Assembly: GCA_048938005.1 (NCBI GenBank)
Contig: JBHLMQ010000018.1
Location: forward strand, 1 to 51,211
Reading direction: 5' to 3'
Source of the DNA: Promethearchaeota archaeon
GTDB taxonomy: Archaea; Asgardarchaeota; Lokiarchaeia; Sigyniarchaeales; SOKP01
Length of the DNA stretch: 51,211 nucleotides
How positions within the stretch are numbered: position 1 is the stretch's first letter; the number at the start of each line of letters is the position of its first letter. The position numbers and the translations under genes were made by a program. Shown in pieces: positions 1,771 to 34,008 of the stretch. Below the pieces are notes generated by a model, which searched no databases, was not told the DNA's origin, and saw nothing but the letters and a program-made list of their open reading frames with translations.

Positions 1771-3120
1771 ATGATTGAAAAAGATGATCCGAAACGGAAA
1801 GAGTTATGTGAAACGGTAATTGAGAAGATAAAAGAGGAAGATATTAAATTGATTTACCTTCAATTTACTGATATTCATGGAATAATTAAGTCTTTTGAAA
1901 TTAATTCGAGAAGAATTGAAGATATATTTGAATTAGGCGAAAATTTTGATGGGAGTTCTATAACTGGCTATGGTGCGATTGAAGAAAGTGATAAGGTCGC
2001 ACTTCCTGATCCTAGTACGTTTCATCTTTTACCATGGAGAAAGGAAAACAAGGTTGCGCGAGTTATTTGTGATATTTATAAGCCTGATGGTGAACGATAT
2101 GAAGCAGATCCTCGTTTTATTTTACAACGAGCAGTAAAAAAGGCAGAAAATCATGGTTATAAATATTTTTGTGCTCCAGAAATGGAATTTTTTATACTTA
2201 CTCCAGATACTAAAGCAGAATTTAAACCATCAGATATGAGGGGATATTTTGATTACGACCCATATGATATCAATGAGAAGATTAGATACACAATCGCGGA
2301 TTATTGCGATGCCATGGGAATCAATGTAGAATGTATCCATCATGAAGTCGCTTTTGGTCAACATGAAGTCGATTTTCGTTATGATGAAGCTGTAAACACA
2401 GCAGATAATACAATTACAATTAAAACAATAGTAAAAACTGTTGCTGCGAATCAAAATCTTGTAGGGACTTTTATGGCTAAGCCTTTTCATGGAATAAATG
2501 GTTCCGGGATGCATGTACATCAATCTTTATGGGAAAACGGAAAAAATGTATTTTATGATGAAAATGATAAAAATAATATTTCATATATAATGAAAAAATG
2601 GATTGCAGGACAATTAAAACATTCAAGAGCTATGTGTGCTGTTTTAAGCAGTTGGCCAAATTCCTATAAAAGACTTGTTCCGGGGTATGAAGCTCCTGTT
2701 TATCTTGCGTGGGGTTTTAGAAATAGATCTCCCTTAATTAGAGTACCTGATTTTCATAGTAGACCTAATGCTGCTAGATGTGAAATTCGATGCCCAGATC
2801 CGTCTGGAAATCCATACCTTCAATTTAGCGTACTTTTGACAACTGGATTAGAAGGTATTTTATCAAATGATATTGAAATTTCTGAACCTACAGATAGGAA
2901 TGTTTATCATCTTTCTAGTAAGGAGATGGAAAAAGAAGGGATTACCTCTTTGCCAGGAAGTCTACATGAAGCATTAATAGAATTCAAAAATTCTGAATTA
3001 ATGAAAGAAATATTTGGAGAATTAGCATTTAAAAATTATTATTATGCTAAGCTTGAAGAATATGATGCTTATCGTGTTGTCGTAAGCGAATGGGAAAGGG
3101 ATAGATATATCCGATTATAA
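1771..3120 (+). CDS. glnA: Glutamine synthetase type I
   Basis: FDGSSI, PEMEFF, HHEVAFGQHE, FMAKPFHGINGSGMHVHQSLW, NSYKRLVPGYEAP, NRSPLIRVP and EIRCPDPSGNPYL motifs. Confidence 0.96.
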   Translation: MIEKDDPKRKELCETVIEKIKEEDIKLIYLQFTDIHGIIKSFEINSRRIEDIFELGENFDGSSITGYGAIEESDKVALPDPSTFHLLPWRKENKVARVICDIYKPDGERYEADPRFILQRAVKKAENHGYKYFCAPEMEFFILTPDTKAEFKPSDMRGYFDYDPYDINEKIRYTIADYCDAMGINVECIHHEVAFGQHEVDFRYDEAVNTADNTITIKTIVKTVAANQNLVGTFMAKPFHGINGSGMHVHQSLWENGKNVFYDENDKNNISYIMKKWIAGQLKHSRAMCAVLSSWPNSYKRLVPGYEAPVYLAWGFRNRSPLIRVPDFHSRPNAARCEIRCPDPSGNPYLQFSVLLTTGLEGILSNDIEISEPTDRNVYHLSSKEMEKEGITSLPGSLHEALIEFKNSELMKEIFGELAFKNYYYAKLEEYDAYRVVVSEWERDRYIRL

Positions 3121-3199
3121 TATCAATCATTTATTTTTTTATAAAATTAATAGCATACTTCAACTTTAACCCTTTAATCGCATAATATGAATTTGAAAT

Positions 3200-5665
3200 A
3201 TGGAAGACATAAAAAATTGGAGATTTTCAATCCCAAGAGTATATTCACCTCAAATATTAAAGAGTTCAAAATTTAAGTTAAATGAAAAATCTGATTACGT
3301 TCATTATGGACAAAAGGGATTTGGAGAATATTTTACTCCTGAAAAGTATTGGTCCCCTCAAATTATATCGCAGATTTTATACCAAGCAGAAACAGGAAAA
3401 ATTCCGGTATCTGGTGCGGGTTATGGAGGGTCTTTTGCTGGAGAGGGATTTGATGCTATATGGTTCGATATGTCAGAAATAGTACGCCCTACAAGGGATG
3501 GAATCCACGGAAGAGAATATATTTCCACGATTATTGAATTAGGTCGAAAAGCCTTGAATTTAAATTTTGATAAGAAGAAACAACTTTTGAAAAAACGTCC
3601 ATCTCTACTAAAACTTCCTTTCCCTATTGTTTTTAATCCACTTCCTTTAATATCAAAAGACAATACAAAAATCAAATCAATTATAAAAGCAGCATATTCA
3701 TTAGGTACAATAGCAATTATCCCTCAATCAGACTTTTCGGAAGATTTACTACCATTTTCTAAAGCTATTTGTTTACGATTAAATAGTAAACCAAATCAAT
3801 TGGAAAAAAAATTGATTCAGAAAGCAAAAATGGTTGAAATTGAAGATTTTTGTCTAATGAAAACGGTGAAGAAGAGTGCTCCCAATATCATTTATTCAAT
3901 TTTTCTTCCGGTAGAAGAGGGGATTGAAAATAAAGTCTTATCTCTAACTAGAAATGGAATTGATATTATTCACTTGAACTTTGATTTATATGGAAAAAGT
4001 AAAGAGGGAGATATTCCAACAGTCATAAAAAGAATTCATGATTTTCTTGTTGATAAAAAATGTCGTAATTCTGTTAGCATTATAGCTAGTGGTGGTATAG
4101 CAGCCGCAGAACATGTTGCAAAAGCTATGATATGTGGGGCTGATTGTGTTGCAATAGATTATATATTATTAATTATTCTTGGATGTTCATTATGGGCTGA
4201 CTTATCCTTTCCATGTGTAGCTGAACATGGTGAAATCGATTTGAATTGGGCTTTTAATAGATTGAAAAATCTAATAGCAGCTTGGAGGGATCAGCTTCTT
4301 GAAGTTCTTGGCGCGATGGGAATTAGAGAAATTAGAAGAATTAGAGGAGAAGTCGGTAGGGCAATTTTTTATAAAGAGGAGAAGGATAAATTTAGAAATT
4401 TATTTAAATCAGTAAGTAAAAATTCAAAATTAGGATATTTAATCCCTCATGAACAGTTAAGTGTTGGAGATTGTCGTTGGCCACTTGAATTAATTCAAGC
4501 AACAATTGAGCAAGCACGTACAGGATTCCTACCAAAACGTCTTGAGTATCGCGTAGGCAGAAGTGCAGGAGGTTTTGATCGTCTTACTTTCACTTTTGAA
4601 GAAAATAGAAAACAATTGATGGATGATCTATCAATAGATTTATCAATTCCCTTAAATCTCCGCTCTAAAGGACCAGAGATAATTATTCCCATGCCAATTT
4701 ATTCAGGAGGGATGTCTTTTGGTTCAATTTCTCTGAATGTGATGCTAGCACGGGCAATGGCAGCTCAAGAACTCGATTCTTTTATGTCTACAGGTGAAGG
4801 TGGCTATCCTCAAGAATTAATACCTTATAAAGAACATGTTATAACTCAAGTTGCTACTGGTTTATTTGGTGTGAGCGAAGCTTCAATTCAAAGAGCTCCA
4901 ATTATAGAATTTAAATATGCTCAAGGAGCGAAACCTGGTTTAGGAGGACATTTACTTGCAGGAAAAGTTACTGAAGCTGTTGCTAATGCTAGAGAATCCG
5001 TAGCAGGAATAAGCCTATTTTCACCATTCCCCTTCCATAGTGTTTATTCAGTAGAAGATCATAAGAAACATATTGATTGGATTAAACAGGTGAATCCAGA
5101 AGCACTAGTAATTGTTAAAGTTTCGACTCCTACAGATGTTGATATGGTTGCAGTTGGTAGTTATTATGCTGGTGCTAATGTTGTGAACATTGATGGTTCA
5201 TATGGTGGAACAGGTGCAGCTCCAGAAGTGAGTAAAAAAAATATAGCAATGCCGATAGAATATGCAATACCAAAAGTTCATAACTTTCTAACAAAAGAAG
5301 GAATAAGAGATGAAATTGTCCTTATTGCATCCGGAGGAATTCGTACTGGATACGATATTGCTAAAGCAATTGCTTTAGGAGCAGATGGTGCAATGGTGGG
5401 TACAGCAGATTTAGTGGCATTAGGATGCGAACGACTTGCTGTGTGTGAAAAGGGGGATGGGTGTCCAGCAGGTATAACTACTACAAATCCTAAATTTGCT
5501 TCCTTAATTGATCCTCAGTGGGGTAAAGAACGCATAATAAATCTTCGTAAAGCATGGGCTATTCAATTACGCCAAATATTAAATGCTCTTGGAATGAAAA
5601 CTATTAAGGAATTAAGAGGTAGGACCGATACAATATTTTATTTAGATAACAAGGTGCAATTATGA
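3200..5665 (+). CDS. Glutamate synthase FMN-binding subunit with two tandem FMN-barrel domains
   Basis: C-terminal domain has MSFGS, TGEGG, QVATGLFGV, KYAQGAKPGLGGHL, ASGGIRTG and the CERLAVCEKGDGCP [3Fe-4S] motif. N-terminal domain has IIASGGI...AKAMICGAD and LGAMGIREIRRIRG but lacks those catalytic motifs. Confidence 0.9.
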   Translation: MEDIKNWRFSIPRVYSPQILKSSKFKLNEKSDYVHYGQKGFGEYFTPEKYWSPQIISQILYQAETGKIPVSGAGYGGSFAGEGFDAIWFDMSEIVRPTRDGIHGREYISTIIELGRKALNLNFDKKKQLLKKRPSLLKLPFPIVFNPLPLISKDNTKIKSIIKAAYSLGTIAIIPQSDFSEDLLPFSKAICLRLNSKPNQLEKKLIQKAKMVEIEDFCLMKTVKKSAPNIIYSIFLPVEEGIENKVLSLTRNGIDIIHLNFDLYGKSKEGDIPTVIKRIHDFLVDKKCRNSVSIIASGGIAAAEHVAKAMICGADCVAIDYILLIILGCSLWADLSFPCVAEHGEIDLNWAFNRLKNLIAAWRDQLLEVLGAMGIREIRRIRGEVGRAIFYKEEKDKFRNLFKSVSKNSKLGYLIPHEQLSVGDCRWPLELIQATIEQARTGFLPKRLEYRVGRSAGGFDRLTFTFEENRKQLMDDLSIDLSIPLNLRSKGPEIIIPMPIYSGGMSFGSISLNVMLARAMAAQELDSFMSTGEGGYPQELIPYKEHVITQVATGLFGVSEASIQRAPIIEFKYAQGAKPGLGGHLLAGKVTEAVANARESVAGISLFSPFPFHSVYSVEDHKKHIDWIKQVNPEALVIVKVSTPTDVDMVAVGSYYAGANVVNIDGSYGGTGAAPEVSKKNIAMPIEYAIPKVHNFLTKEGIRDEIVLIASGGIRTGYDIAKAIALGADGAMVGTADLVALGCERLAVCEKGDGCPAGITTTNPKFASLIDPQWGKERIINLRKAWAIQLRQILNALGMKTIKELRGRTDTIFYLDNKVQL

Positions 5666-8097
5666 AAGTTATGAAAAAGGAAACTGAAGGGGGATGTGGA
5701 GTTGTTGGATTTTGTTCAACTGAGAAAATTTCAGGTAAACATTTATTACCTCCATGTATTCAAATGCATAATAGGGGAAACGGGAAAGGAGGAGGTATTA
5801 TTGCCATGGGTTTAGAAGCTTCTCAACTTAATGTGAGAGAAGAGATTCTAAAAACAAATTATTTAATACAGATTGCTTACCTTAAACCTGAAATACGCAA
5901 AAATGTAGAATCTCAATTTATTTTTAACAATTTTGATGTTTTTACTTATTACAAAATCAAAACCAAAAATGATAATTCAAGTAAGCTTGAAATAATTCCA
6001 CCTGAAGTATATAGATATTTCTGCCGTGTAAAGAAGCCAGTTCTAAAGAAATTCATGAAAAGTAATAATTTTAAATATACCAATAAAGCTGAAGATGAGT
6101 TTGTGTTTTTAAATAGTTTTCAGATAAATAAAAAATTCTATAGTGAATATAGTGCTCAAGAAGCATTCGTTTTATGTCATGGAAAAAATATGATTGTTTT
6201 TAAGATTGTAGGATATGCTGAAGAAGCTATTGATTATTATAATTTGATGGATTTAAAAGCTCATCTTTGGGTAGGACATCAAAGATATCCAACCAGAGGA
6301 AGAGTCTGGCACCCAGGTGGGGCTCACCCTTTTATTGGATTGAAAGAAGCTTTAGTACATAACGGAGATTTTGCAAATTATCATTCCATTTGCGAATATC
6401 TTCATCAAAATGGAAGGGAATCATTATTTTCGACAGATACTGAAGTAGCTGCGTTATTATTTGATCTATGGACAAGAATTTACGAATACCCATTAGAATA
6501 TGCAATTGAAGCCTTTGCACCCACAACAGAAAGAGATTTTGCTATGCTTACACCTGAAAAACAACATATTTATCAACTTATTCAAAGTTATCATGTCCAA
6601 AATTCTCCTGATGGTCCTTGGTTTTTCATTGTTGCCAGAAATGATGATGTAGAGGATCAATTCCAATTACTGGGTATAACTGATACATCTATGTTGAGAC
6701 CACAAGTATTTGCTCTTCAGGAAAATGATGAAGTGAAAATTGGTATTATAGCTTCGGAGAAGCAAGCAATAGATTCAATTCTCTTAAGTATTTCCGAGGA
6801 GGATGATAGATATTGTTCCATAGCTGATTTATATTGGAATGCTCGTGGTGGTAGTTATACTGATGGAGGTGCTTTTTTATTTACTTTAAAAAATAATAAA
6901 TTATCTTGTACAGATAAGTTTGGTAAAAAAATCAAGATTCCAAAAAGAATTGCTCTAAAAGTTAAAACGGTCAAGCATTATCAATTCAATCCTGAATTTA
7001 ATTCCATTATTAAGGAATTTGCCAGTATGGATTACGGAGAAATATTAGGTTTTTTGAAATCTGCTGAAATTTATGCTAAAAAAGGTGATTCTCAATTCCA
7101 AAAAACTATTAAACTTTTAACTAAATTAATTGATAGAGTGTATTCAATAGGGGATAAAAAAAGAAGTAATCTTCTATCATTATATCATAAAACATTATAT
7201 TCAATCTTTCGTGGAATTTCAATAGATTCAAAATTGTTTAAGTTCTTCAGTTTACAACATTCATCTATACCTATCCCTAATTCAAATGATCAATGTTTAA
7301 TCATTGATGGCAAAGGTTTTTCTTCAGAAGGATCTAGAAATTTGGCTTCAATATTGGTGAAAGCTTTTAATAGTGGATGGATGAATTTTATTTTGTTTGA
7401 CCTTAGAGGGCAAAGATTTTGTGGTTGTGGTTTTGGGTATCATTCAAAACCAATTAGAATTGATGTATATGGTTCTCCCGGTGATTATTTAGGATCAGGT
7501 ATAACTAATACTGAAGTTTTTGTGCATTCTAATGGACAAGATCAATGGGGACAGATTATGAAATCAGGAAAACTTGTTATCTATGGGGATGTTGGACAAA
7601 CATTTCTTTATGGAGCTAAAGGAGGTACTTGTTATGTGAGAGGAAATGCAGCAGGAAGGGCTCTTATAAATGCAGTTGGGAATCCTCGCGTTATCATTAA
7701 TGGAAGTTGTTTGGATTATTTAGCTGAATCTTTTATGGCAGGTCATGTTTTCCATGATGGTGGATTTGTTATTTTGAATGGAATAAGTTTAAATAAAGAT
7801 GGTTTATTAGAAGAATATCCAGAACCTTATCCAGGAGGAAATTTATTTTCTCTAGCGTCGGGTGGAGCCATTTATATTCGTGATCCATTTAAAAAAACTT
7901 CAAAAAACCAACTCAATGGAGGAAATTTTGCTAATCTCTCAAATCAAGATTGGAATCTCATTAAACCTTATCTACAAGAAAATGAAAGATTATTTGGCAT
8001 TAAAATTGATGATTTATTGACAGTAAACAATCATATAAAGTCTCCAATGGAGGTATATAGAAAAATTGTTGTTGGGAGCACAGAGGTTTTAAAATGA
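5662..8097 (+). CDS. Glutamate synthase subunit: Ntn (type II) glutamine amidotransferase fused to a C-terminal GXGXG beta-helix
   Basis: GGCGVVG (Cys12), NRGNGKGGG, HQRYPT, AHPF, HNGD and TDTE motifs; C-terminal GQRFCGCG, GSPGDYLG, GDVGQTFLYGAKGG and DYLAESFMAG. ATGA overlap with the upstream gene. Confidence 0.9.
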   Translation: MKVMKKETEGGCGVVGFCSTEKISGKHLLPPCIQMHNRGNGKGGGIIAMGLEASQLNVREEILKTNYLIQIAYLKPEIRKNVESQFIFNNFDVFTYYKIKTKNDNSSKLEIIPPEVYRYFCRVKKPVLKKFMKSNNFKYTNKAEDEFVFLNSFQINKKFYSEYSAQEAFVLCHGKNMIVFKIVGYAEEAIDYYNLMDLKAHLWVGHQRYPTRGRVWHPGGAHPFIGLKEALVHNGDFANYHSICEYLHQNGRESLFSTDTEVAALLFDLWTRIYEYPLEYAIEAFAPTTERDFAMLTPEKQHIYQLIQSYHVQNSPDGPWFFIVARNDDVEDQFQLLGITDTSMLRPQVFALQENDEVKIGIIASEKQAIDSILLSISEEDDRYCSIADLYWNARGGSYTDGGAFLFTLKNNKLSCTDKFGKKIKIPKRIALKVKTVKHYQFNPEFNSIIKEFASMDYGEILGFLKSAEIYAKKGDSQFQKTIKLLTKLIDRVYSIGDKKRSNLLSLYHKTLYSIFRGISIDSKLFKFFSLQHSSIPIPNSNDQCLIIDGKGFSSEGSRNLASILVKAFNSGWMNFILFDLRGQRFCGCGFGYHSKPIRIDVYGSPGDYLGSGITNTEVFVHSNGQDQWGQIMKSGKLVIYGDVGQTFLYGAKGGTCYVRGNAAGRALINAVGNPRVIINGSCLDYLAESFMAGHVFHDGGFVILNGISLNKDGLLEEYPEPYPGGNLFSLASGGAIYIRDPFKKTSKNQLNGGNFANLSNQDWNLIKPYLQENERLFGIKIDDLLTVNNHIKSPMEVYRKIVVGSTEVLK

Positions 8098-8885
8098 ATA
8101 TAATAGTATGTTTAAAACAAGTTCCTGATACTGATGAAGTGAAAACAGATCCAGAAACGGGTCGAATTGTTCGAGAAGGAATAGCAGGTACTATAAATCC
8201 TTTTGATATGTTTGTTCTTGAAGAGGCTCTACGGTTAAGGGAAAAATATGGGGGAAAAATTACTTTACTAAGTATGGGACCAAAAGATGCAATCAATACT
8301 CTTCATTTTGGTTTAGCCTTGGGAGCTGATGAGGCATATTTACTATCAGATATTAAATTTGCGGGATCGGACACATTAGCTACATCCTACGCCCTTTCTT
8401 GTGGTATAAAAAAACTTGGGGATTATGATTTAATCATCTGCGGAATTAAAACTACTGATGGTGACACTGGTCAAGTGGGGGCAAATTTAGCGGAAATTCT
8501 TGATATACCAAGTGTGTATTATGTTAATAAGATACTCAAATATCAAAATACTAAAATTGAAGTTGAAAGACTTTTAGAAGATAGGAGTCAAATTTTACAA
8601 ATCTCTCTACCTTGTCTTATTTCAATTGTAAAGGGTGCTAATATACCTCGGATGCCTACTTTAATTGGAAAGATTGAAGCTGAGAGAAAGCTATTAAAAA
8701 TGTTTAATGCTTCCGAAGTTAATGCTATAGAAGATAATTGTGGACTCGAAGGCTCCCCTACCAGAGTAGTAAAGGTATTTCTCCCAGAAAAAAGAAAACA
8801 AGGAGTAATTTTAAAAGGTTGTTTTGATCGAAATATCATTAAATTGTTACAATTTTTAAAAAATAAGAAAATGGTGTCATTTTAA
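8094..8885 (+). CDS. etfB: Electron transfer flavoprotein beta subunit
   Basis: VCLKQVPD, INPFD, SMGP, FAGSDTLAT, DGDTGQVG and GLEGSPTRV motifs; ATGA overlap with the upstream gene. Confidence 0.95.
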   Translation: MNIIVCLKQVPDTDEVKTDPETGRIVREGIAGTINPFDMFVLEEALRLREKYGGKITLLSMGPKDAINTLHFGLALGADEAYLLSDIKFAGSDTLATSYALSCGIKKLGDYDLIICGIKTTDGDTGQVGANLAEILDIPSVYYVNKILKYQNTKIEVERLLEDRSQILQISLPCLISIVKGANIPRMPTLIGKIEAERKLLKMFNASEVNAIEDNCGLEGSPTRVVKVFLPEKRKQGVILKGCFDRNIIKLLQFLKNKKMVSF

Positions 8886-10084
8886 TGATTTATATTGATC
8901 AAGATAAATGCATTGGATGTGGCGAGTGCGTTGATGCATGTATATTTGGCTCTATGTCCCTTATAGGTAATTTTCCCTCAATTTCAGAAGACTGCCGCTT
9001 GTGTGGAGCGTGTGCCAGAATTTGCCGCTATAATGCTATAATCATTAAACGAAAAAAAAAGAAGAAAATTACTGAGTGGAAAGGTGTCCTTATTTTCGGG
9101 GAACAACGAGATGGAGAAATTTTAGAAGTTGTGTATGAGTTGTTAGGTAAGGGTAAAATGTTAGCTGATAAACTTAATGAATCTCTTTTATGCATTATAT
9201 TAGGAAATTCAGTAAAAAGAATCAATGATTTAAAATTTTATGGAGCAGATGAGATACATTACTTTAACGATAATAACCTTGAGATGTTTAATTGTGAAAT
9301 TTACTCAAAAATAATTTCCAATTTCGTTAAAAATATAAAACCAAGCATATTTTTAATAGGTGCAACCTCCATTGGACGAGAATTAGGTCCTAGAATAGCC
9401 GCGAAACTTAAAACAGGATTAACTGCAGATTGTACTGATCTAGAGATAAATAAGGAAGGATTATTGCTACAAACTAGACCTGCATTTGGAGGAAATATCA
9501 TGGCATCTATAATATGCCCATATTCAAGACCACAAATGGCTACTGTACGCCCAAAAGTCATGAAAATAAAGGAGAACAAAAACGGAGAGGGAGATGTAAT
9601 TAATCATCATGTAAATTCAGAGTTCGTAAAATCAAGAATTATAACATTAAGCGAAATGAAATACAATGAACACTATAACATAGAAAATGCTGATATTATA
9701 GTTTCAGGAGGATTAGGATTAGGTAAAAAAGAAGGTTTTATTTTATTGCAAGAACTTGCAGATGAATTAAACGGAGCAATTGCTGCAAGTAGACCTGCCG
9801 TTGATGCTGGATGGGCTGATCCTACTGTTCAAGTTGGAATGTCTGGTAAAATTGTACAACCACATTTATATATTGCTTGTGGAATATCTGGAGCGGTGCA
9901 ACATCGAGTTGGTATGGAAACATCCGATGTTATTGTTGCTATAAATAAAGATGAACGAGCTCCTATTTTTGAAATTGCAGATTTCGGAATAGTGGCCGAT
10001 TTGTATGATTTTCTTCCAAAATTTATCCAAAATCTAAAAAAAAATAAAAATGATATTTTTGTTTCAAAAAAAAAAATTAGATAA
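8885..10084 (+). CDS. etfA: Electron transfer flavoprotein alpha subunit with N-terminal 2x[4Fe-4S] ferredoxin domain
   Basis: CIGCGECVDAC and CRLCGACARIC; GLTADCT, RPAFGG, ASRPAVDAGW, QVGMSG, GISGAVQH and AINKD motifs; TAATG overlap with etfB. Confidence 0.95.
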   Translation: MIYIDQDKCIGCGECVDACIFGSMSLIGNFPSISEDCRLCGACARICRYNAIIIKRKKKKKITEWKGVLIFGEQRDGEILEVVYELLGKGKMLADKLNESLLCIILGNSVKRINDLKFYGADEIHYFNDNNLEMFNCEIYSKIISNFVKNIKPSIFLIGATSIGRELGPRIAAKLKTGLTADCTDLEINKEGLLLQTRPAFGGNIMASIICPYSRPQMATVRPKVMKIKENKNGEGDVINHHVNSEFVKSRIITLSEMKYNEHYNIENADIIVSGGLGLGKKEGFILLQELADELNGAIAASRPAVDAGWADPTVQVGMSGKIVQPHLYIACGISGAVQHRVGMETSDVIVAINKDERAPIFEIADFGIVADLYDFLPKFIQNLKKNKNDIFVSKKKIR

Positions 10085-10138
10085 TTTTTTACTAATTAGG
10101 TTTAAATAGATAATGAGATATTTTAAATTGATTAAGAG

Positions 10139-11788
10139 ATGTCAAATTCAGTTTTAAGAGTTATAATAGCTCAAATAAATCCAGTTGTGGGAGATATTGA
10201 ATTTAATGAGAAAAAGATTGCGGAGATAATTCGAAAGAATCAAGATGTTGATATTATTATCTTTCCAGAAATGTCTTTAGTTGGTTATCCTCTTATGGAT
10301 CACATACTTGATCCTTTAATTCAGGAAAAGAATCTACATGCAATTGAAAATATAAAGAAATTGGACTCCAAAGCAACAATAATTCTTGGAACTTTTACAA
10401 AACCTCCTGAATTAAGAGGAAAAATCCAGCAATTTTATAATTCCGCTCTCATTATCGAAGGAAATGAAGTGATCCATATTGAAAACAAACGGCTATTACC
10501 CAATTATGATGTATTTGATGAAAGAAGATATTTTTCTTTTGACGATAAATTTGAACCAGTCAATATAAAAGGTGTAAAGTGTGGTATTTTAATATGTGAA
10601 GATATATGGGATGAGTATTATAAAACAAAAGTTGCTGAAAACCTCGTAGATAATGGTGCTGAATTATTAATTGTTATAAATGCTTCCCCTTACCATATTA
10701 ACAAATTTAAATTAAGAGCAGATTTAGTTTGTCAAAAATCTAAGAATCTTTCTGTTCCTATTGCATATATTAATATGGTTGGGGGAATTGATGAAATAGT
10801 TTATGACGGTCAAAGTTTTATAACAAACAGTTTTGGTCAGATTATCTATAAAGCAAAAGAATTTGAAGAAGATGTTCCTATGATTGAGTTAGAAATAGGA
10901 GGGACGCCTTTAGATTCTTTGCAATATTTTGAGAATGATTGGAGAGATGATGTGCTTAGAGCCCTTAGATTAAACTTATATGATTATTTTCACAAAAGTG
11001 GTATATTTAATGGTGTTGTTTTAGGATTGAGTGGAGGAATTGACTCCGCATTTACTGCCTATATATGTGCTACAGCATTAGGATCTGAAAAAGTTACATG
11101 TCTTATGATGCCAACAAGATTCACATCTCAGAAGAGTATTGATTTAGCTCGAGAACTTTGTGAAAATTTAAAGATAAAATATGTAATATATCCTATAGAT
11201 GATCTTTTTGCTGTGTATGAAAAAGAGATGGAAAAAAATCTTGGAAAACAACCTTTTGGTGTAGCGGATGAGAATCTTCAAGCACGAATTAGAGCAAATA
11301 TTTTAATGTATTATTCAAATAAATATAATTGGTTATTAGTATCAACTGGAAATAAATCTGAAATTGCTGTAGGGTATTGCACTCTTTATGGAGATACATG
11401 TGGTGGAAAAAATATCCCTGGAGATCTTTTGAAGGTCCAGATATATGATATTTGCAATTGGATAAATCAAAAAGAAGAGATAATTCCTAAAGGAATAATA
11501 GAAAGACCTCCAACTGCTGAGCTCCGTGAGAATCAGAAAGATAGTGATTCTTTACCGCCATATGATATTTTAGATATAATATTAGAAGAAATTATTGAAA
11601 ATGGAATTGGATCAGAATTTAAGAATTTGAAAAGTAAAGATTTTGATATAAATACTATTAATAAAGTGAGAAAACTCTATTTAAATTCGGAGTATAAACG
11701 CAGGCAATTAGTGCAAACAATTAAGGTAAGTGAGAGTGCATTTGGAATTGGGAGACGATATCCGGTATTAAAAAAAATAAAATTTTAA
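10139..11788 (+). CDS. nadE: Glutamine-dependent NAD+ synthetase (nitrilase plus synthetase domains)
   Basis: Nitrilase triad in FPEM, KRLLPNYDVFDERRYF and ICEDIW; synthetase motifs LSGGIDS, ENLQARIR, TGNKSE, GYCTLYGD and PPTAEL. Confidence 0.95.
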   Translation: MSNSVLRVIIAQINPVVGDIEFNEKKIAEIIRKNQDVDIIIFPEMSLVGYPLMDHILDPLIQEKNLHAIENIKKLDSKATIILGTFTKPPELRGKIQQFYNSALIIEGNEVIHIENKRLLPNYDVFDERRYFSFDDKFEPVNIKGVKCGILICEDIWDEYYKTKVAENLVDNGAELLIVINASPYHINKFKLRADLVCQKSKNLSVPIAYINMVGGIDEIVYDGQSFITNSFGQIIYKAKEFEEDVPMIELEIGGTPLDSLQYFENDWRDDVLRALRLNLYDYFHKSGIFNGVVLGLSGGIDSAFTAYICATALGSEKVTCLMMPTRFTSQKSIDLARELCENLKIKYVIYPIDDLFAVYEKEMEKNLGKQPFGVADENLQARIRANILMYYSNKYNWLLVSTGNKSEIAVGYCTLYGDTCGGKNIPGDLLKVQIYDICNWINQKEEIIPKGIIERPPTAELRENQKDSDSLPPYDILDIILEEIIENGIGSEFKNLKSKDFDINTINKVRKLYLNSEYKRRQLVQTIKVSESAFGIGRRYPVLKKIKF

Positions 11789-16392: not shown

Positions 16393-19300
16393 ATGAGAAA
16401 AAAAAATAAAATTCTATTATTGTCATTTGTCTTAATAATTAATGGAATGATTTTATTCTCATCAGTATTTAAAGATAATTTAATCAAATCTGAGATTGAC
16501 AAAGGAACTCAGGGTCCTGGAAATCTCCATTTCAAAAATTTTAAAATCTCAGACTATTCTCCTAACTACCTAGGGATCGGCGAAAAAGTTAATATTACTC
16601 TACAACAGTCATTATTAAATAACTCATTAATTAGTTTTTCAGATTTAGATATAGACAATACTTTTACCGAACCGTGTCCAACAGTAAACAATTTTAATAG
16701 TTCATTTATAAATATCTTGATTGAAGATATTAAAGCAGATAATATTTCATCTGTAGTCCAAAATAATCCAGATGATGGTGAAATTGATTGTGCTACAACG
16801 CGTTTAACCTCATTTTCTGTAAGTGCAAATTCTTATATTATTAATGCCTCTATAAACATTAGACGTACAGCTAACCCGACAGGTGATATTTATTTATATG
16901 CATCGTCCTGGAATTCTGTTTTGAACAGAAGCGAACCAACGGGTATACCTACTACAATAGGTACTATCACCCCAACTGTTAATGGTTGGTTATATATAGA
17001 TTTAATAGATACCTTTTTAAATAACTCAAATACAGATAATAAAACTTGGTTTTTTGGAGTAGTTAGAACTTCAGGTGGAGGTTCAATCCAATGGCGTTAT
17101 ACCGATGATAGTCCTATGAACAATAATTCATATGCCTATTATACAAATGCAGGGTGGATATATGAACCAAGAGATTATTTATTAGAGATTGGACTGGCAC
17201 CTATAAATACAACACCTAATCCCCAAGATATTGGTTTAAAAATAAATAATACTCAAGTTATAAATTATGGTGTGGGTTCAGGATATTGGACATCTATAGG
17301 GGAATTCCAAAGTAGTTCAGGGATTTTGAGTTTTAAAATAGTTTCAGATTGGAAAGCTTTATCTTTAAATATTACAGAAGTTCAAATTAATTATACTAAG
17401 ACAGATTTACAAGCTAGCTCAGAATTTAATGTTTTCAAAGGAGCAAGTAAAATATCTTGGAATGTAAGTAGGACTGGTGGATTTAATTATTTTGATCCTA
17501 AAATTAACGATCATACAACAATTAATTTTACAATTCCGGCCAATTGGAATGATATAAATGTATTTAACAGCACTGTAAATAAGACTAATAATATATTAAT
17601 TCGAAATCTTAATAACGTTTATAAAGAAGTTCAAGTATTAAATGCTGGGAATGGTACTTTTTGGTTCTTGAATGCTACTTCTTCAAATTTGCTACAATCA
17701 ATTGATACATTTGAAAATTCAAATCCAACAACTATATTTAATTATTCAAGTATAATTCATTTCAATGCTACTTTTTCTAAAAAAATTGCCCAGAATGATG
17801 GTATTATTAATTTAAGCGTGTATAGTCCTGCTGCTATTAATGATGAGTTAAATTTCACTGAGACCTATACATCATTTGGTCCAGCATCTAAAATTTCACT
17901 AAATGATTGGGATGTTTCTGATAATATAACTCAATACGGAATTTTTCGTGTGCAGGTCTCATGGAATAACGATAGTGATGCTGGATTTCTTGAAAAAAAC
18001 ATAACAATTATAGGGGAAACAGATCTTACTCTCATTAAACCACTCCAAAACGCTTCATTTAATTCTGATCAAATCTTTAATATTACTGTCTATTTCCATG
18101 ATTCTGGTTTAAACAAATCGATTGATGGAACTCTTTGGTATAGTATTAATAGCGAGATTTGGCAATCTACAATTAATAATAATGGAACTACGGGTTACTA
18201 TAATATCACAATAGATTGTAGTACGCTTTATCCTTATGGTCCTCAAAATGTATCATTATCATTAAATCAAACTTATTACTATAACAAATCTCTCGATTAT
18301 TATTTCAATCTGATAGGAATATCAGAATTAACACTAATATCTCCTGCTCAAAATTCATTTTTCACACCTAATCAGAGATTTAACATTACAGTTTATTATA
18401 ATGATACTTTGAATAATCAACCCATTAATGGTACTATGTGGTATAGTATTAACGGGGAAACATGGGAATCTACGACAAATAATAATGGAACTACTGGGTA
18501 TTATAATATTACAATAGATTGTAGTAAGCTTTATTCTTATGGTTCTCAAAATGTATCCATCTCAATAAATCATACATCTTATCAGAATAAAACACTCGAA
18601 TATAAATTTTCCGTGGTAGGTTTATCAGAATTAACATTAGTAGCTCCTAATCAAAATGCTACCTTCTATTCAGATCAATTTTTTAAGGTGTCTGTTTATT
18701 ATAATGATACTATAAATGATAAGCCAATTAACGGTACTATGTGGTATAGTATTAATGGGGGAGTATGGCAATCAACCACCAAAAATAATGGCACTGATGG
18801 ATACTATAATATTTCTATTGATTGTAGTATTCTTGTTCCCTACGGTCCTCAAAGTGTTTCAATCTCATTAAATCATACTGATTACCAGAATAAAACTCTT
18901 GTTTATAATTTTAAAGTAATAGGAGTATCAGATCTGACATTAATAACACCTAATCAAAATGCTACCTTCTATTCAGATCAAATTTTTAATATCACTGTTT
19001 ATTATAATAGTACTACGAATAACCAACCAATTAACGGTACTATGTGGTACAGCATCAATGGGGGATCTTGGCAATATACGGCAGACAATAACGGCACTAC
19101 AGGATATTACAGTATTACAATAGAATGCAATACTTTCGATCCTTACGGTCCTCAAAGTGTATCAATCTCATTAAATCAAACTTATTACCAAAATAAAACC
19201 CTATATTTCAATTTCACGATTATTGGATTAACTGAATTGATATTAATAAGTCCTTCCCAAAACCAATTATTCAGTACAAATCAAACCTTCAGTATGATCG

Positions 19301-21687
19301 TTTATTTTAATGATACACTAAAAAATCAACCTATTAACGGTATTATGTGGTATAGTATCAATGGTGGAATATGGCAATCTACGGCAACCAACAATGGTAC
19401 GGCTGGATATTACAATGTAACAATTGATTGTAGTTCCTTCGATCCTTATGGGTCTCAAAGTGTTTCGATCTCATTAAATCAAACTTATTATCAGAATAAA
19501 ACTCTTGATTATAATTTTAAAGTAATATGTTTAACAGAATTAAACATAACTAATCCAATTCAATTTATAAATAAATTTTCGGATGAATTATTCAACATTA
19601 CAGTTTATTTTTATGATAATAATAAAGTTTTAGGTATTACAGGTGCAAATATCAGTTATAATGTTAATGGAACGGTATACAATTATGTTTATGAGGTAGG
19701 AAATGGCTATTACAATATTACTATTTACAATTGGCAAGTACGTAGTGATACTGGTTATGGCTTAATTGACATCACCATAAATGCAAATAAAACTAATTAT
19801 TTTAATCAAACGTCAGTTTATCATTATTATCTATATAACGCAACCACACAGTTAATAGACCAAGACACTTTAAATGTAATAAGAAGTCAAAATGTTACTT
19901 TTACGAGTTATTATTTGTTTAACGATTCGACTCCTATACTAGGAGCAAATCTACAAATGATTTCAATCAATTCAAACTTTATTTATACTTGGGGAGATAA
20001 TGGAGATGGTAGCTATTATATAGAACTGGGTACTACTAATGTGCTTGGAATGGGTAATATTCCCTACACTATTATCTTCAATATATCTTCACAATTTAAT
20101 CAAACTCAGGTGTATTCGGTAAACCTATATGTATGGAATAGAACTGATTATATAGTTAATAACTTAAGTCAGACAAATTACTCTTACTATCTCAATTCTG
20201 AACCGTGGATAATTTATTATGGTGAAGATGTTACATTTAATATTTCTTATTTCGATACAGATAATGGTGATGAGTTGATATCTGGAGCATGGGGTAATTT
20301 TACATTATTTAATTCAACGAAGAATTGGGATCCTATTTTGATATATACTGATATCAATGGATTTTATATTTTCACATTAAATACAAGTGATTTATTTACA
20401 GGAATATATAATGTTAAAGTAAAATTAAATTCAACATATTTTAATTCCACAATAAGTATTTTTCAATTCGAGATAATAGCTTGCAACGTTTCAGCTAACA
20501 TTTTATCTTTAATTCAATATGGAAGTACTATTAATTTAAATAACACGATTTATGAAGCTTATTTTGGTGATAACATTACAATTTATATGAGTTTTCTTAA
20601 TTCCTTTTCAAATACATCTATAATTGGAGGATTTGGAAACTTAACATTCAACAATCAAAGTATTTTTTATTCAGATATCGATAAAGATGGAATTTATATT
20701 TGGGAACTAAATTCTAGCAATTTAGAATTTGGTAGATATTCATTTACTGTTAACTTCAATAAAGTAAATTTCCAAAATCATTCTTTTGAAATATTTTTCG
20801 ATATTAATAAGTTTAATATTAATATAACCATTGTTGAACAACCAGATGAAGTCGCTCCTGGTAATATTTTCAGTATTACATTGAATATTACTAATCAATT
20901 TATTGGTGAGCCAATTAGTAATTTAAATATTTCAATTTTAGTAGATTTCGGGACTATTTCATGGGAAGCTACTAATGTATCTTTAAGCAACGGATTAATT
21001 TATTTTTACGTCTTTGTCCCCAATAATGCAACGCTTGTGAATATAACCATTCAATTTCTTGGAGATAACTCTTTTAATGCTTCTGAAATTGTTTTTTCTA
21101 TCAAAATAAAAGCAGAAGATAATGGGAATATTATAAGTGAATTTCTATTAATTGCGTTGTATCTAATCCTGATCATAGGTGCTGTAGTTGGAAGCGGATT
21201 ATTCATAATTTATAGAAAGAAGAGATTAAGTTCATCAGAATCGATTGTTGAAGAAGATCATAAATTATTAGCCTCAATGAAATCCGAAGAGGAATTTAAA
21301 GAGTCTCTCCAAGAGGAAATTGTCATAAAAAAATCTATTGAAGCTACTAAACAAATTAATAAACTTATTAAAAAACAAGTTGATATTGATAATGGATTCA
21401 AGATTTTAAGCCTAGATAGATTAAAAGGTAAAATGGAATCCAAAATATCCGCGTTTATAGAAAAAGCAGAAGAAATTAAGAAATTAGAAGAAAGAGAAGT
21501 AATAGTAGAGAAACTAGATAAAGTGGGTCTCATGGAACAAATTGAACAAATTGAGTTTAAAGAGTTTAAAAATTCTATAAGGAAATTAAATAATGAAGGA
21601 TTAGATTTATTAAAAAAGGGGGAGTTGAAGAAATCACTTGAAAAATATAAGAAGATTAGAGATTTGTTAAGTAACTATTTCAAATAA
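16393..21687 (+). CDS. Large membrane-anchored surface glycoprotein with tandem Ig-like repeats and a cytoplasmic helical tail
   Basis: N-terminal KKNK plus hydrophobic signal/anchor; very many N-x-S/T sequons; beta-strand repeats; TM segment at about 21142-21213 followed by RKKR and about 155 aa of K/E-rich tail. Confidence 0.88.
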   Translation: MRKKNKILLLSFVLIINGMILFSSVFKDNLIKSEIDKGTQGPGNLHFKNFKISDYSPNYLGIGEKVNITLQQSLLNNSLISFSDLDIDNTFTEPCPTVNNFNSSFINILIEDIKADNISSVVQNNPDDGEIDCATTRLTSFSVSANSYIINASINIRRTANPTGDIYLYASSWNSVLNRSEPTGIPTTIGTITPTVNGWLYIDLIDTFLNNSNTDNKTWFFGVVRTSGGGSIQWRYTDDSPMNNNSYAYYTNAGWIYEPRDYLLEIGLAPINTTPNPQDIGLKINNTQVINYGVGSGYWTSIGEFQSSSGILSFKIVSDWKALSLNITEVQINYTKTDLQASSEFNVFKGASKISWNVSRTGGFNYFDPKINDHTTINFTIPANWNDINVFNSTVNKTNNILIRNLNNVYKEVQVLNAGNGTFWFLNATSSNLLQSIDTFENSNPTTIFNYSSIIHFNATFSKKIAQNDGIINLSVYSPAAINDELNFTETYTSFGPASKISLNDWDVSDNITQYGIFRVQVSWNNDSDAGFLEKNITIIGETDLTLIKPLQNASFNSDQIFNITVYFHDSGLNKSIDGTLWYSINSEIWQSTINNNGTTGYYNITIDCSTLYPYGPQNVSLSLNQTYYYNKSLDYYFNLIGISELTLISPAQNSFFTPNQRFNITVYYNDTLNNQPINGTMWYSINGETWESTTNNNGTTGYYNITIDCSKLYSYGSQNVSISINHTSYQNKTLEYKFSVVGLSELTLVAPNQNATFYSDQFFKVSVYYNDTINDKPINGTMWYSINGGVWQSTTKNNGTDGYYNISIDCSILVPYGPQSVSISLNHTDYQNKTLVYNFKVIGVSDLTLITPNQNATFYSDQIFNITVYYNSTTNNQPINGTMWYSINGGSWQYTADNNGTTGYYSITIECNTFDPYGPQSVSISLNQTYYQNKTLYFNFTIIGLTELILISPSQNQLFSTNQTFSMIVYFNDTLKNQPINGIMWYSINGGIWQSTATNNGTAGYYNVTIDCSSFDPYGSQSVSISLNQTYYQNKTLDYNFKVICLTELNITNPIQFINKFSDELFNITVYFYDNNKVLGITGANISYNVNGTVYNYVYEVGNGYYNITIYNWQVRSDTGYGLIDITINANKTNYFNQTSVYHYYLYNATTQLIDQDTLNVIRSQNVTFTSYYLFNDSTPILGANLQMISINSNFIYTWGDNGDGSYYIELGTTNVLGMGNIPYTIIFNISSQFNQTQVYSVNLYVWNRTDYIVNNLSQTNYSYYLNSEPWIIYYGEDVTFNISYFDTDNGDELISGAWGNFTLFNSTKNWDPILIYTDINGFYIFTLNTSDLFTGIYNVKVKLNSTYFNSTISIFQFEIIACNVSANILSLIQYGSTINLNNTIYEAYFGDNITIYMSFLNSFSNTSIIGGFGNLTFNNQSIFYSDIDKDGIYIWELNSSNLEFGRYSFTVNFNKVNFQNHSFEIFFDINKFNINITIVEQPDEVAPGNIFSITLNITNQFIGEPISNLNISILVDFGTISWEATNVSLSNGLIYFYVFVPNNATLVNITIQFLGDNSFNASEIVFSIKIKAEDNGNIISEFLLIALYLILIIGAVVGSGLFIIYRKKRLSSSESIVEEDHKLLASMKSEEEFKESLQEEIVIKKSIEATKQINKLIKKQVDIDNGFKILSLDRLKGKMESKISAFIEKAEEIKKLEEREVIVEKLDKVGLMEQIEQIEFKEFKNSIRKLNNEGLDLLKKGELKKSLEKYKKIRDLLSNYFK
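18010..19524 (+). repeat. Five tandem 303-bp (101-aa) intragenic repeats
   Basis: The TGG of WYSIN falls at 18136, 18439, 18742, 19045 and 19348 (exact 303-bp period). Units start at 18010, 18313, 18616, 18919 and 19222; more degenerate units follow 19525. Confidence 0.95.
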
Positions 21688-25765: not shown

Positions 25766-25769
25766 TTAC

Positions 25770-34007: not shown

Positions 34008-34008
34008 T

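Follow-up and report, generated by a model that had tools for sequence, protein, structure and literature searches.

A GltD-less split glutamate synthase linked to a two-FAD ETF in a Lokiarchaeial genome: a candidate route for electrons into nitrogen assimilation

Introduction

Glutamate synthases (GOGAT) are described in the available sections of two sources as receiving electrons from NAD(P)H via GltD or from free ferredoxin (PMC8097209), with F420 via FrhB as a predicted third input (PMC9012536). Here we ask how electrons reach a glutamate synthase that has no adjacent GltD and whose genes run directly into etfB and etfA. The locus lies on contig C22 of a Lokiarchaeial (Asgard) MAG that is 95% complete, within a stretch of 51,211 nt that was analysed as a whole (the window). 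A sequence-only reading had proposed that the synthase is the high-potential partner of a bifurcating ETF, or alternatively that the ETF is a simple GltD substitute, and knew of no described enzyme of either kind; likewise, no description of an ETF-fed glutamate synthase was found in the literature searched. The glt-etfBA unit suggests a so far undescribed route for electrons into nitrogen assimilation.

Results

Layout of the locus

The order glnA-glt-glt-etfB-etfA-nadE, the overlaps and the gaps of 79 nt and 54 nt that had been read earlier are all borne out by the ORF calls and by direct reading; all six genes are on the forward strand. The synthase and ETF genes are chained by 4-nt ATGA overlaps at 5662–5665 and 8094–8097 and by a 1-nt overlap within TAATG at 8883–8887. 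The synthase and etfB genes overlap in other genomes as well (G298 and G397, 4 nt each; G132, 1 nt).

glnA (1771–3120) encodes a type I glutamine synthetase of 449 aa (Gln-synt_C, E = 2.9e-121; TIGR00653, 495 bits with a cut-off of 429) and occupies the same position in G185 and G209. The 79-nt spacer behind it (3121–3199, forward strand) contains a T7 run at 3134–3140 and the stretch TTTATAAAA at 3138–3146, as read from the sequence, and may hold a putative archaeal terminator and TATA box; glnA is a nitrogen-assimilation neighbour, probably with a separate transcript. At the other end, nadE (10139–11788), separated from etfA by 54 nt (10085–10138), encodes a glutamine-dependent NAD+ synthetase of 549 aa with CN_hydrolase and NAD_synthase domains (NF010588, 597 bits with a cut-off of 479). 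It directly follows etfA in G185, G209 and G233, and not in G151 or G132, and is thus a neighbour in the closest relatives only.

Synthase core

The first synthase subunit (P0001; 3200–5665, 821 aa) has at its N-terminus a barrel akin to the central domain of GltB (Glu_syn_central, E = 3.1e-10), which is fused to an FMN (β/α)8 synthase barrel (Glu_synthase, residues 484–799, E = 1.7e-104). It aligns with the FMN domain of B. subtilis 7mfm_G at 190 bits, including three Cys, QGAKPG and GEGG. The triad C743, C749 and C755, invariant in 37 aligned homologues, lines up with its counterpart in B. subtilis GltA, where the second and third Cys stand one residue closer together, and is predicted to bind a 3Fe-4S cluster. 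The ferredoxin-like domain present in split homologues is absent from P0001.

The second subunit (P0002; 5662–8097, 811 aa) consists of a class-II (Ntn) glutaminase domain (GATase_6, E = 9.9e-07), an unassigned middle part and a C-terminal GXGXG β-helix domain (E = 1.9e-11), whose C-terminus aligns to residues 1279–1408 of the Fd-GOGAT 1llw. The glutaminase domain is matched by the glmS and purF models at about 1e-10 and not by the GltB-specific GATase_2 model. All 17 aligned homologues keep C12, which lies in the motif EGGCGV; with the nucleophilic Cys at residue 12, we assume that a propeptide is cleaved off. A single polypeptide in the order glutaminase-central-FMN-GXGXG, which was tested for, is not what the locus encodes: two genes specify central plus FMN and then glutaminase plus GXGXG, and most relatives use three genes rather than two. 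The GltD-less synthase pair that had been recognized before stands; its split and permuted architecture had escaped notice, as had the archaeal origin of the DNA, the ferredoxin fusion in all three ETFs of the genome and a stand-alone GltD-like gene on another contig.

Judged by these domains, the synthase carries every catalytic part of a GltB/Fd-GOGAT-type enzyme: an Ntn glutaminase, a central barrel, an FMN barrel with the 3Fe-4S triad and a GXGXG domain. Context supports glutamine- and 2-oxoglutarate-dependent glutamate formation as its probable reaction. The genome has no Glu_synthase gene other than that of P0001, and glnA, amtB, P-II, carAB and GDH recur at related synthase loci. Within the genus this synthase replaces the classical archaeal GOGAT, with no genome of five having both types.

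Type of the ETF

etfB (P0003; 8094–8885) encodes the small ETF subunit of 263 aa (Pfam ETF, E = 1.1e-35) and etfA (P0004; 8885–10084) a protein of 399 aa with Pfam Fer4, ETF and ETF_alpha matches. EtfA begins with a 2x[4Fe-4S] ferredoxin domain (about residues 1–62, window 8885–9070) bearing two CxxCxxCxxxC motifs (C9/12/15/19 and C37/40/43/47), followed by ETF domains I and II with RPAFGG (R198). EtfB contains FAGSDTLAT, DGDTGQVG (D122–G129, with the small residue Gly123) and GSPT at 220–223. The ferredoxin domain, RPAFGG, FAGSDTLAT and DGDTGQVG had all been noticed before and are present. The available parts of PMC9232219, PMC10734219 and PMC12630350 list DGDTxQVG (small residue at the position of Gly123), SPT and the Arg of RPxFGG as motifs of the β-FAD site; all these motifs of the bifurcating group occur in EtfB and EtfA, where the Arg is R198. 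R198 and P199 are the same in all 40 sequences compared, and the α-FAD domain is fully conserved. The RXFXG segment at the NAD+ site reads IKFAG, with Arg replaced by Ile; at its first position, 27 aligned EtfBs, close homologues of known type among them, have R, K, I, S, V, M, Q or A.

EtfB scores 162–213 bits against five structurally solved bifurcating or confurcating ETFs versus 58–77 bits against canonical ETFs, and EtfA 268–383 bits versus 123–149 bits against canonical α subunits. The highest EtfA score is to CarE (6fah_A), over residues 4–386 with both Cys motifs included. By motifs and PDB scores, the ETF is of the NADH-oxidising, two-FAD bifurcating (group 2) type, and it sides with these ETFs rather than with the AMP type, the grouping that the sequence-only reading had left to be checked. 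Two-FAD type is no proof of bifurcation, because the ETF of C. propionicum acrylyl-CoA reductase is a non-bifurcating one according to the section of PMC5861303 that treats it.

A ferredoxin-fused EtfA is the rule in this genome, being part of all three ETFs, and so no peculiarity of the glt operon. The glt-linked EtfA and EtfB are only 44–46% identical to the two other ETF pairs, one of which adjoins an acyl-CoA dehydrogenase. The glt-linked ETF thus appears to be a dedicated paralogue, which we count as support for a partnership with the synthase.

The type of the ETF also bears on the direction of the reaction. The FMN barrel might instead oxidise glutamate, and the ETF would reduce NAD+ with electrons from this reaction and from reduced ferredoxin, a confurcation as in Ldh-EtfAB that would suit an amino-acid-fermenting archaeon. 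The ETF is as similar to the confurcating LctBC (213 and 273 bits) as to any bifurcating ETF, and the genome has many amino-acid and acyl-CoA catabolic genes. Against oxidation stand the conserved GXGXG domain and glutaminase domain with its invariant Cys, the position between glnA and the glutamine-dependent nadE, the presence of three ordinary glutamate dehydrogenase genes and the substitution for classical GOGAT within the genus. We consider the oxidative direction highly improbable.

Other candidate electron inputs

In a whole-genome search, contig C22 has no match to Fer4_20 (GltD; 7 matches elsewhere), Acyl-CoA_dh_1 (13 elsewhere), FAD_binding_4 (11 elsewhere) or FrhB_FdhB_C (12 elsewhere), and Fer4_ETF_QO has no match in the entire 95%-complete genome. 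A Cys-motif scan of the window finds ferredoxin-type motifs only in EtfA, two Fer4_11 subunits of molybdopterin enzymes and one 378-aa protein, with no small free ferredoxin. The absences that had been noted near the ETF thus hold for the families searched genome-wide and, for free ferredoxin, in the window.

One of the Fer4_20 matches elsewhere is a stand-alone GltD-like protein of 465 aa on contig C92, which could serve as a classical β subunit of the synthase and make the ETF irrelevant; modules of the GltD type are an established entry for NAD(P)H electrons (PMC8097209, in the part available). The gene is unlinked to the operon, however. Of the five genus genomes with the glt-etf unit, three have an orthologue at E ≤ 1e-100, while the search of G209 (97% complete) and G198 (88% complete) found none. 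Among genomes that lack the unit, 14 of 49 have one, so the gene and the unit do not go together. Stand-alone GltD adjoins the synthase family in none of 80 related loci and appears only inside HdrL fusions and, in L075, in a canonical gltBD pair 10 kb away. A β-subunit role of this protein is very unlikely. The product of the gene beside it has an N-terminus that resembles a flavodiiron protein.

Distribution of the glt-etfBA linkage

The linkage is not confined to this genome, a point on which the sequence-only reading had made its proposal depend. Of 27 Asgard loci with this family of synthases, one of which is not assessable, 12 have etfBA directly downstream. Among the 12 are all ten members of the clade of the window, whose synthases are 57–100% identical. 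In a further locus, the archaeal L031, etfBA lies downstream as well. No ETF adjoins the synthase in 15 of the 27 Asgard loci, nor in any bacterial or ANME relative among the 80 loci; of the 78 loci scored, 13 have less than 1 kb of downstream DNA. In the synthase tree (94 rows, FastTree), ETF-linked synthases stand at three places, and the starred branches force at least two changes; their EtfAs form three separate clades. On these trees, ETF was recruited to the synthase at least twice independently.

Three genomes (G000, G151 and G233) each have a separate ETF paralogue linked to an acyl-CoA dehydrogenase. In the 91%-complete genome G132, the single ETF pair is glt-linked and six acyl-CoA dehydrogenase homologues lie elsewhere; this ETF may be a general one.

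Redox modules in the wider family

The GltD-less synthase family, large and apparently undescribed, comprises more than 7,700 proteins from many anaerobic phyla. A redox module adjoins the synthase in 33 of 40 loci with both flanks, and seven have no redox partner of any kind. In bacterial relatives, the same core lies beside MvhD/MetVF, HdrCB-HdrL or a GlcD-like FAD/Fe-S dehydrogenase, and the last module (FAD_binding_4) is fused in the same polypeptide in 14 of 18 long (giant) relatives. Several of the redox modules of the family belong to classic bifurcation families. It is conceivable, if doubtful, that interchangeable modules (ETF, MvhD/MetVF-HdrCB-HdrL, GlcD-like) plug into this large family, with a bifurcating Asgard GOGAT that recovers part of the GS-GOGAT cost as one case.

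Because many relatives have no ETF and seven of the 40 loci have no redox partner, the core can work without ETF, perhaps on free ferredoxin. This observation favors a synthase that acts as a stand-alone ferredoxin-dependent GOGAT like Fd-GltS and forms no complex, with the ETF serving other dehydrogenases or only supplying reduced ferredoxin in the same regulon. The fused core without ferredoxin domain resembles Fd-GltS in cofactor content, and the G132 arrangement, a sole and glt-linked ETF with acyl-CoA dehydrogenases elsewhere, also fits. Several findings argue against independent action: start/stop overlaps join synthase and etfB in three lineages, the linkage is kept throughout the clade, at synthase identities as low as 57%, and the ETF was recruited at least twice independently, separate acyl-CoA-dehydrogenase-linked paralogues are kept in G000, G151 and G233, and in the long relatives the neighbouring redox module is mostly (14/18) physically fused to the synthase. 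We regard a stand-alone synthase as unlikely and the ETF as probably the electron-input partner of the synthase; the conserved linkage and the ETF type support this part of the sequence-only reading, whereas its further step to bifurcation remains an inference.

Proposed mechanism

The acceptor couple of glutamate synthesis lies well above NADH in potential, as for other ETF partners. Our tentative reading, which is short of probable, is that positions 3200–10084 encode one enzyme system, a GltD-less split GOGAT with a dedicated two-FAD EtfBA as bifurcating reductase module. NADH would reduce the β-FAD of EtfB. One electron would then travel over the mobile α-FAD domain of EtfA to the 3Fe-4S cluster and FMN of the synthase; FMNH2 would in turn reduce 2-iminoglutarate, the product of 2-oxoglutarate and the ammonia released from glutamine. 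The other electron, at low potential, would exit by way of the ferredoxin domain on EtfA and reduce free ferredoxin, giving a net reaction of 2 NADH + Fd(ox) + Gln + 2-OG -> 2 NAD+ + Fd(red, 2 e-) + 2 Glu. In known GOGATs, electrons enter at cofactors of rather low potential, so transfer from α-FAD to the 3Fe-4S cluster would be uphill.

The same complex may work without bifurcation, with the ETF as an NADH:GOGAT reductase that replaces GltD and sends both NADH electrons into the synthase. The 2x[4Fe-4S] domain of EtfA would then be a wire to the 3Fe-4S cluster like the GltD clusters in NADPH-GOGAT, or a tethered ferredoxin on an Fd-GOGAT-like core. All the linkage evidence applies equally to this alternative, and the position of the ferredoxin domain is in keeping with it. 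This domain is present on 47 of 57 split barrel-2 genes. The ETF-linked Lokiarchaeial clade and L031 have fused barrels without it and an EtfA with it, whereas the ETF-linked G298 and G397 have it on barrel 2 (Pfam Fer4_7 at 35–92 in L133) and an EtfA without it. The complementarity, however, rests on only two clearly independent events, and L040 and L045 have fused barrels without the domain, yet no ETF. A pattern of one ferredoxin domain per system would fit equally a wire into the synthase and an exit to ferredoxin. Low-potential [4Fe-4S] clusters link FAD to 3Fe-4S in NADPH-GltS (PMC8097209) and the C. propionicum ETF is a precedent for a non-bifurcating two-FAD type (PMC5861303); on the other hand, the ferredoxin domain of CarE and LctC is reported to connect external ferredoxin with β-FAD as an adaptor (PMC9232219 and PMC5861303), each within the portion of the source available, and the fully conserved α-FAD domain would be left without a role. 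A non-bifurcating complex is possible but uncertain. The simple GltD substitute of the sequence-only reading, in view of two-FAD ETFs that do not bifurcate, is about as likely as bifurcation; the odds are roughly even, with bifurcation only slightly ahead.

Discussion

If the partnership is real, an ETF-fed GOGAT would be the fourth electron input to glutamate synthase, and the first biosynthetic partner of a two-FAD ETF that involves neither acyl-CoA nor quinone nor lactate. If the complex also bifurcates, an energy-starved Asgard archaeon would regain part of the GS-GOGAT cost by dividing NADH electrons between glutamate synthesis, which is exergonic, and the endergonic reduction of ferredoxin. 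Nitrogen assimilation itself would then be a source of low-potential electrons, which would matter for how syntrophic Asgard archaea balance their energy and for models of their metabolism. The same core beside Hdr/MvhD/MetFV modules, and beside or fused with a GlcD-like dehydrogenase, offers natural experiments on the exchange of input modules and several testable enzyme candidates.

Comparison with known systems

The synthase resembles GltBD (Azospirillum 1ea0/2vdc, B. subtilis 7mfm) in its FMN barrel (188–196 bits) with aligned Cys triad, QGAKPG and GEGG, and in having a central barrel, GXGXG domain and class-II glutaminase. It differs in that no GltD is adjacent, the α chain is split in two and permuted, the glutaminase fits PurF/GlmS-type models better than the GATase_2 of GltB, and the Cys spacing is one residue longer. 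Like Fd-GOGAT (Synechocystis 1llw/1ofd), with which its C-terminal domain aligns, it has no reductase subunit and only FMN and 3Fe-4S are predicted from sequence; unlike Fd-GOGAT, it is split and translationally coupled to a two-FAD ETF with a tethered ferredoxin domain. The classical archaeal split GOGAT (ferredoxin domain plus FMN barrel, GATase_2 of about 400 aa and GXGXG as separate genes) shares the domain-wise split and the adjoining glnA and also occurs elsewhere in the genus and the order (L125, L127). That enzyme is nevertheless of a different family, with 30–45% identity in shared parts, has no ETF linkage, and carries a 2x[4Fe-4S] domain of its own on the barrel gene. The predicted FrhB-linked, F420-dependent glutamate synthases of ANME and methanogens provide, in the portion of PMC9012536 available, a precedent for exchange of a GOGAT input module by gene neighbourhood, but the module is FrhB, which has no match on the contig of the window, rather than ETF.

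On the ETF side, EtfA resembles CarE of Acetobacterium woodii CarCDE (6fah) over its full length, N-terminal 2x[4Fe-4S] domain included (383 bits), and EtfB resembles CarD (201 bits). In contrast to CarCDE, no acyl-CoA dehydrogenase (CarC/Bcd) is adjacent, none of the 13 Acyl-CoA_dh_1 matches being on C22, and the neighbouring oxidoreductase is an FMN/3Fe-4S amidotransferase, a class not listed among ETF partners in the available parts of PMC9232219, PMC8097209 and PMC5861303. Bcd-EtfAB, Ldh-EtfAB (LctBCD) and EtfABCX/FixABCX share the group-2 ETF type, the β-FAD motifs and a partner gene beside the etf genes; their electrons enter the partner at FAD or quinone/Fe-S, whereas here the entry point would be the 3Fe-4S/FMN pair of a biosynthetic enzyme.

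The glt-etfBA unit and the synthase core

The contig that carries the unit (C22) belongs to an assembly of 3.72 Mb in 101 contigs (genome G000), which is 95% complete and 7% contaminated with about 31% G+C, and the best homologues of the window's proteins are labelled as Promethearchaeota or Lokiarchaeota/Lokiarchaeia MAGs, which makes the source an Asgard archaeon. Pfam and NCBIfam assign glnA (1771-3120), the synthase subunits P0001 (3200-5665; Glu_syn_central and Glu_synthase domains) and P0002 (5662-8097; class-II glutaminase and GXGXG domain), etfB (8094-8885), etfA (8885-10084; N-terminal 2x[4Fe-4S] domain) and a glutamine-dependent nadE (10139-11788). The ORF calls and a reading of the sequence bear out all the ORFs, overlaps and gaps that the sequence-only reading had given for this gene row. 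A family search found no acyl-CoA dehydrogenase on C22.

The C-terminal half of P0001 matches the FMN domain of GltB chains of known structure (188-196 bits), and alignment to these chains revealed that P0001 keeps the cysteine triad of the 3Fe-4S site as well as the QGAKPG and GEGG segments. The N-terminal half is a second barrel, which matches the GltB central domain and is distantly paralogous to the FMN barrel (cross-hits at 20-26% identity). P0002 contains an Ntn-type glutaminase, whose Cys12 is invariant among the aligned homologues, and, at its C-terminus, a domain alignable to the Fd-GOGAT beta-helix. Because both barrels, the 3Fe-4S triad, the Ntn glutaminase and the GXGXG domain are matched, the two proteins are predicted to hold every part of a GltB/Fd-GltS-type core, in a permuted order and divided between two chains. 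The central barrel (window 3340-4410; P0001 residues about 48-402) also retains an SGGI...GAD segment, which corresponds to the part of the FMN enzymes L-lactate oxidase and DHODH that binds phosphate. P0002 belongs to a large family: of 8,000 candidates scored, 7,786 pass E <= 0.001, and members with about 50-57% identity are spread over Aminicenantes, Acidobacteriota, Chloroflexota, Desulfobacterota, Planctomycetota, Verrucomicrobiota, ANME-1 and other groups.

Further along the contig, a 1,764-aa ORF (16393-21687, + strand) matches no Pfam family at E <= 1e-6. carB and carA, encoding carbamoyl-phosphate synthase, are found 10 kb beyond the glt-etfBA unit, on the opposite strand (22454-26903, - strand), and in many bacterial loci of the synthase family carAB is likewise found downstream of the synthase. 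A redox and acyl-CoA gene cluster occupies 28292-47927 and includes two molybdopterin oxidoreductase and Fer4_11 pairs (33447-36258, - strand; 40062-42754, + strand), two NMO-like FMN proteins, an HpaB-family protein, a TetR regulator, a 3-hydroxyacyl-CoA dehydrogenase, an enoyl-CoA hydratase and a thiolase.

The ETF resembles two-FAD ETFs

To place the ETF, we compared it with a two-FAD reference set of five solved bifurcating or confurcating ETFs: LctBC, CarDE, EtfAB of C. difficile and of A. fermentans, and the EtfAB of T. maritima EtfABCX. EtfB scores 162-213 bits against this set versus 58-77 against canonical AMP-type ETFs, and EtfA scores 268-383 versus 123-149. CarE is the best EtfA match, aligned over residues 4-386 with the ferredoxin domain covered. 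Passages of PMC9232219, PMC10734219 and PMC12630350 describe a signature of beta-FAD and bifurcation, comprising DGDTxQVG with Gly123, SPT and the Arg of RPxFGG, and all these elements are present in the window's ETF. The bit scores and motifs thus side with the bifurcating two-FAD ETFs rather than the AMP type, the grouping on which the earlier proposal of bifurcation depended, and the protein is predicted to be a two-FAD, group-2 ETF. According to a passage of PMC5861303, this type is necessary, yet insufficient, for bifurcation. We regard a bifurcating mechanism, in which NADH electrons are split between glutamate synthesis and ferredoxin reduction, as plausible but unproven, and advance it tentatively.

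The Arg of the RXFXG motif is replaced by Ile in EtfB; this change need not mark a loss of NADH binding, a reading that we set aside since the position varies across the family. Two further EtfBA pairs are encoded by G000 (C53:224-4741 and C53:32475-35815); one adjoins an 843-aa Fer4_20 protein and the other an acyl-CoA dehydrogenase, and both have a ferredoxin-fused EtfA. With three of three EtfAs in this genome fused, the fusion was rejected as an adaptation to the synthase.

Conservation of the linkage between synthase and ETF

Conservation was assessed in two surveys. The first covered 80 loci on contigs from one genome per species, which are the best 80 of at least 590 confirmed relatives. 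L080 and L095, whose glutaminase gene was uncalled, were excluded, leaving 78 scored loci. L141 was omitted because it is the same contig as L018. Genes were called by a crude rule (longest non-overlapping ORFs), and neighbour families were named by Pfam from one representative per cluster. Among these best 80, the barrel genes lie 5' of the glutaminase-GXGXG gene almost everywhere, and etfBA is found downstream in only two, L018 (a Promethearchaeota MAG) and L031 (an archaeon), with downstream DNA shorter than 1 kb in 13 of the 78 scored loci. Many relatives have no ETF at all, so the synthase core may accept free ferredoxin.

The second survey covered 400 genomes of the window's phylum, 27 of which contain the full-length synthase family. 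Of the 27, 12 have etfBA immediately 3' of the synthase (one locus was not assessable): all 10 members of the window's synthase clade, which span families f1 and f3 with synthase identities between 57% and 100%, as well as G298 and G397, which come from other families and whose EtfA has no ferredoxin domain. The synthase gene runs into etfB with a 4-nt overlap in G298 and G397; in G132 the overlap is 1 nt. On the synthase tree, in which 23 loci with short flanks are unlabelled and L136 (from G397) is absent, having been missed by the motif filter, ETF linkage requires three changes, and well-supported branches force at least two. The linkage, for which uniqueness to this genome had been named as the test, is thus shared and recurrent. 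Three separate clades of the EtfA tree contain the glt-linked proteins; the change count of four is inflated because database rows of unknown gene context were scored as not glt-linked. The window's EtfA clade is distinct from the acyl-CoA-dehydrogenase-linked paralogue, which is retained in G000, G151 and G233.

As a matter of judgement, an overlap-joined neighbour that recurs in independent lineages would not be expected by chance. The ETF is probably functionally coupled to the GOGAT, a reading that comparative genomics supports well. In G132, the ETF may be shared with other enzymes: the glt-linked pair is its only ETF, and six acyl-CoA dehydrogenase homologues are encoded elsewhere.

The unit is patchily distributed: in the survey of the window's genus (G177-G229), five of the 54 genomes carry it, and these are five of the 10 clade members. 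The window's synthase clade lies among bacterial clades, apart from the other Asgard clades. The patchiness and the bacterial tree neighbours are compatible with lateral acquisition.

Redox modules beside the synthase relatives

Forty of the best 80 loci have at least 4.5 kb of upstream and 2.5 kb of downstream DNA, and a redox module adjoins the synthase core in 33 of these. MvhD/MetV/MetF are encoded upstream in 23 (8 of which also have HdrC/HdrB/HdrL downstream), HdrCBL only in two, a GlcD-like FAD/Fe-S dehydrogenase of roughly 620 aa directly upstream in seven and an ETF in one; seven have no redox module. Plain GltD is not adjacent to the synthase in any of the surveyed loci (best 80 of at least 590). 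A stand-alone GltD-like gene on another contig of G000 (C92) was considered as a GltD acting in trans and rejected, because it does not follow the operon across the genus: 3 of the 5 operon-bearing genomes have it, as do 14 of the 49 that lack the operon, and one operon-bearing genome that is 97% complete lacks it.

Across the 78 scored loci, MvhD-MetV-MetF upstream and/or HdrC-HdrB-HdrL downstream occur in 36, from bacteria of at least seven phyla; these loci lie within L019-L097 (e.g. L037:4407-6413, L094:12613-18808 and L076). HdrL is named in a passage of the D. autotrophicum genome paper as an Hdr/GltD-like fusion, and its GltD-like module could dock on the synthase barrel. Going by this arrangement, glutamate synthase may be part of an undescribed Hdr-type complex in these bacteria. 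The GlcD-like gene (FAD_binding_4/FAD-oxidase_C/Fer4_8, about 620 aa) is directly upstream in 10 of the 78 loci (L022, L025, L028, L033-L035, L058, L062, L075 and L083).

Among 18 longer synthase relatives of 1,440-3,345 aa (P0396-P0411 are the entries listed for the GlcD-like type), 14 combine FAD_binding_4, Glu_synthase and GXGXG in one polypeptide; the giant relatives given for this fusion measure 2,500-3,345 aa. One type of module found next to the synthase, at least, is thus physically joined to it, and this raises the credibility of the ETF as a partner. The GlcD-linked or fused synthase may be driven by 2-hydroxyacids. None of the 18 is a synthase-ETF fusion, which is weak evidence. A further redox module beside a GltD-less GOGAT is found in a related genus (G172), where a 436-aa CCG and Fer4_8 gene (HdrD/GlcF-like; L125:2553-3863) follows the classical archaeal GOGAT.

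Candidate electron path

A ferredoxin-like Cys motif opens the barrel-2 gene in 47 of the 57 split relatives, with a Pfam Fer4_7 match in L133. This motif is absent from the fused barrels of both the ETF-linked Loki clade and L031, where EtfA carries such a domain; in G298 and G397 the arrangement is reversed, with the domain on barrel 2 and none on EtfA. For the location of the 2x[4Fe-4S] domain, window 3200-5665 was compared with L133:7378-8928 and L136:10531-12081. This pattern, with a single ferredoxin domain in each system, may indicate that the domain wires into the 3Fe-4S cluster, which would favour the ETF as a plain NADH input that substitutes for GltD. However, the domain of CarE and LctC is described in passages of PMC9232219 and PMC5861303 as a relay between external ferredoxin and the beta-FAD, fused barrels without the domain also occur without an ETF (L040 and L045), and every EtfA of G000 is fused. 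The pattern could also be a coincidence. We rate the plain-input role only slightly below the bifurcating mechanism. A complex prediction with P0001 residues 471-821, EtfA 1-386 and EtfB 1-263 (1000 residues, with P0001 trimmed and P0002 omitted), using a separate alignment for each chain, scored 0.00 in two runs, gave no verdict and carries no weight for or against a complex.

Probable role in nitrogen assimilation

glnA is present in 16 of the 80 related loci (best 80 of at least 590), and amtB, P-II, GDH, carAB and NtrC-type regulators were also identified by Pfam on the cluster representatives. Glu_synthase is a single-copy gene in G000, which has three glutamate dehydrogenase genes. A glutaminase of approximately 400 aa, which belongs to the classical archaeal GOGAT in the two annotated loci from other genera (L125 and L127) and adjoins glnA in L127, is matched in 12 of the 49 genus genomes without the glt-etfBA unit; the two GOGAT types occur together in none of the five genomes with it. 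The recurrence of nitrogen neighbours and the lack of any genus genome with both types support the unit as the cell's GOGAT. Since the glutaminase is conserved and glnA and nadE flank the unit, an oxidative, confurcating role is unlikely.

Elsewhere in G000 (C95:7651-14489), a 915-aa ORF with matches to both FrhB_FdhB_C and Fer4_20 (GltD-like) neighbours two glutamate dehydrogenase genes. A 294-aa ORF next to these genes has a start that resembles PyrK/NfnA.

Comparison with known glutamate synthases

Our search of the full-text literature, with subscription journals and supplements outside its reach, returned no description of an ETF-dependent, ETF-linked or bifurcating glutamate synthase. 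The known enzymes, as listed in a passage of PMC8097209, comprise NADPH-, NADH- and Fd-dependent forms together with unassigned archaeal ORFs, and F420-dependent glutamate synthases are predicted in a passage of PMC9012536.
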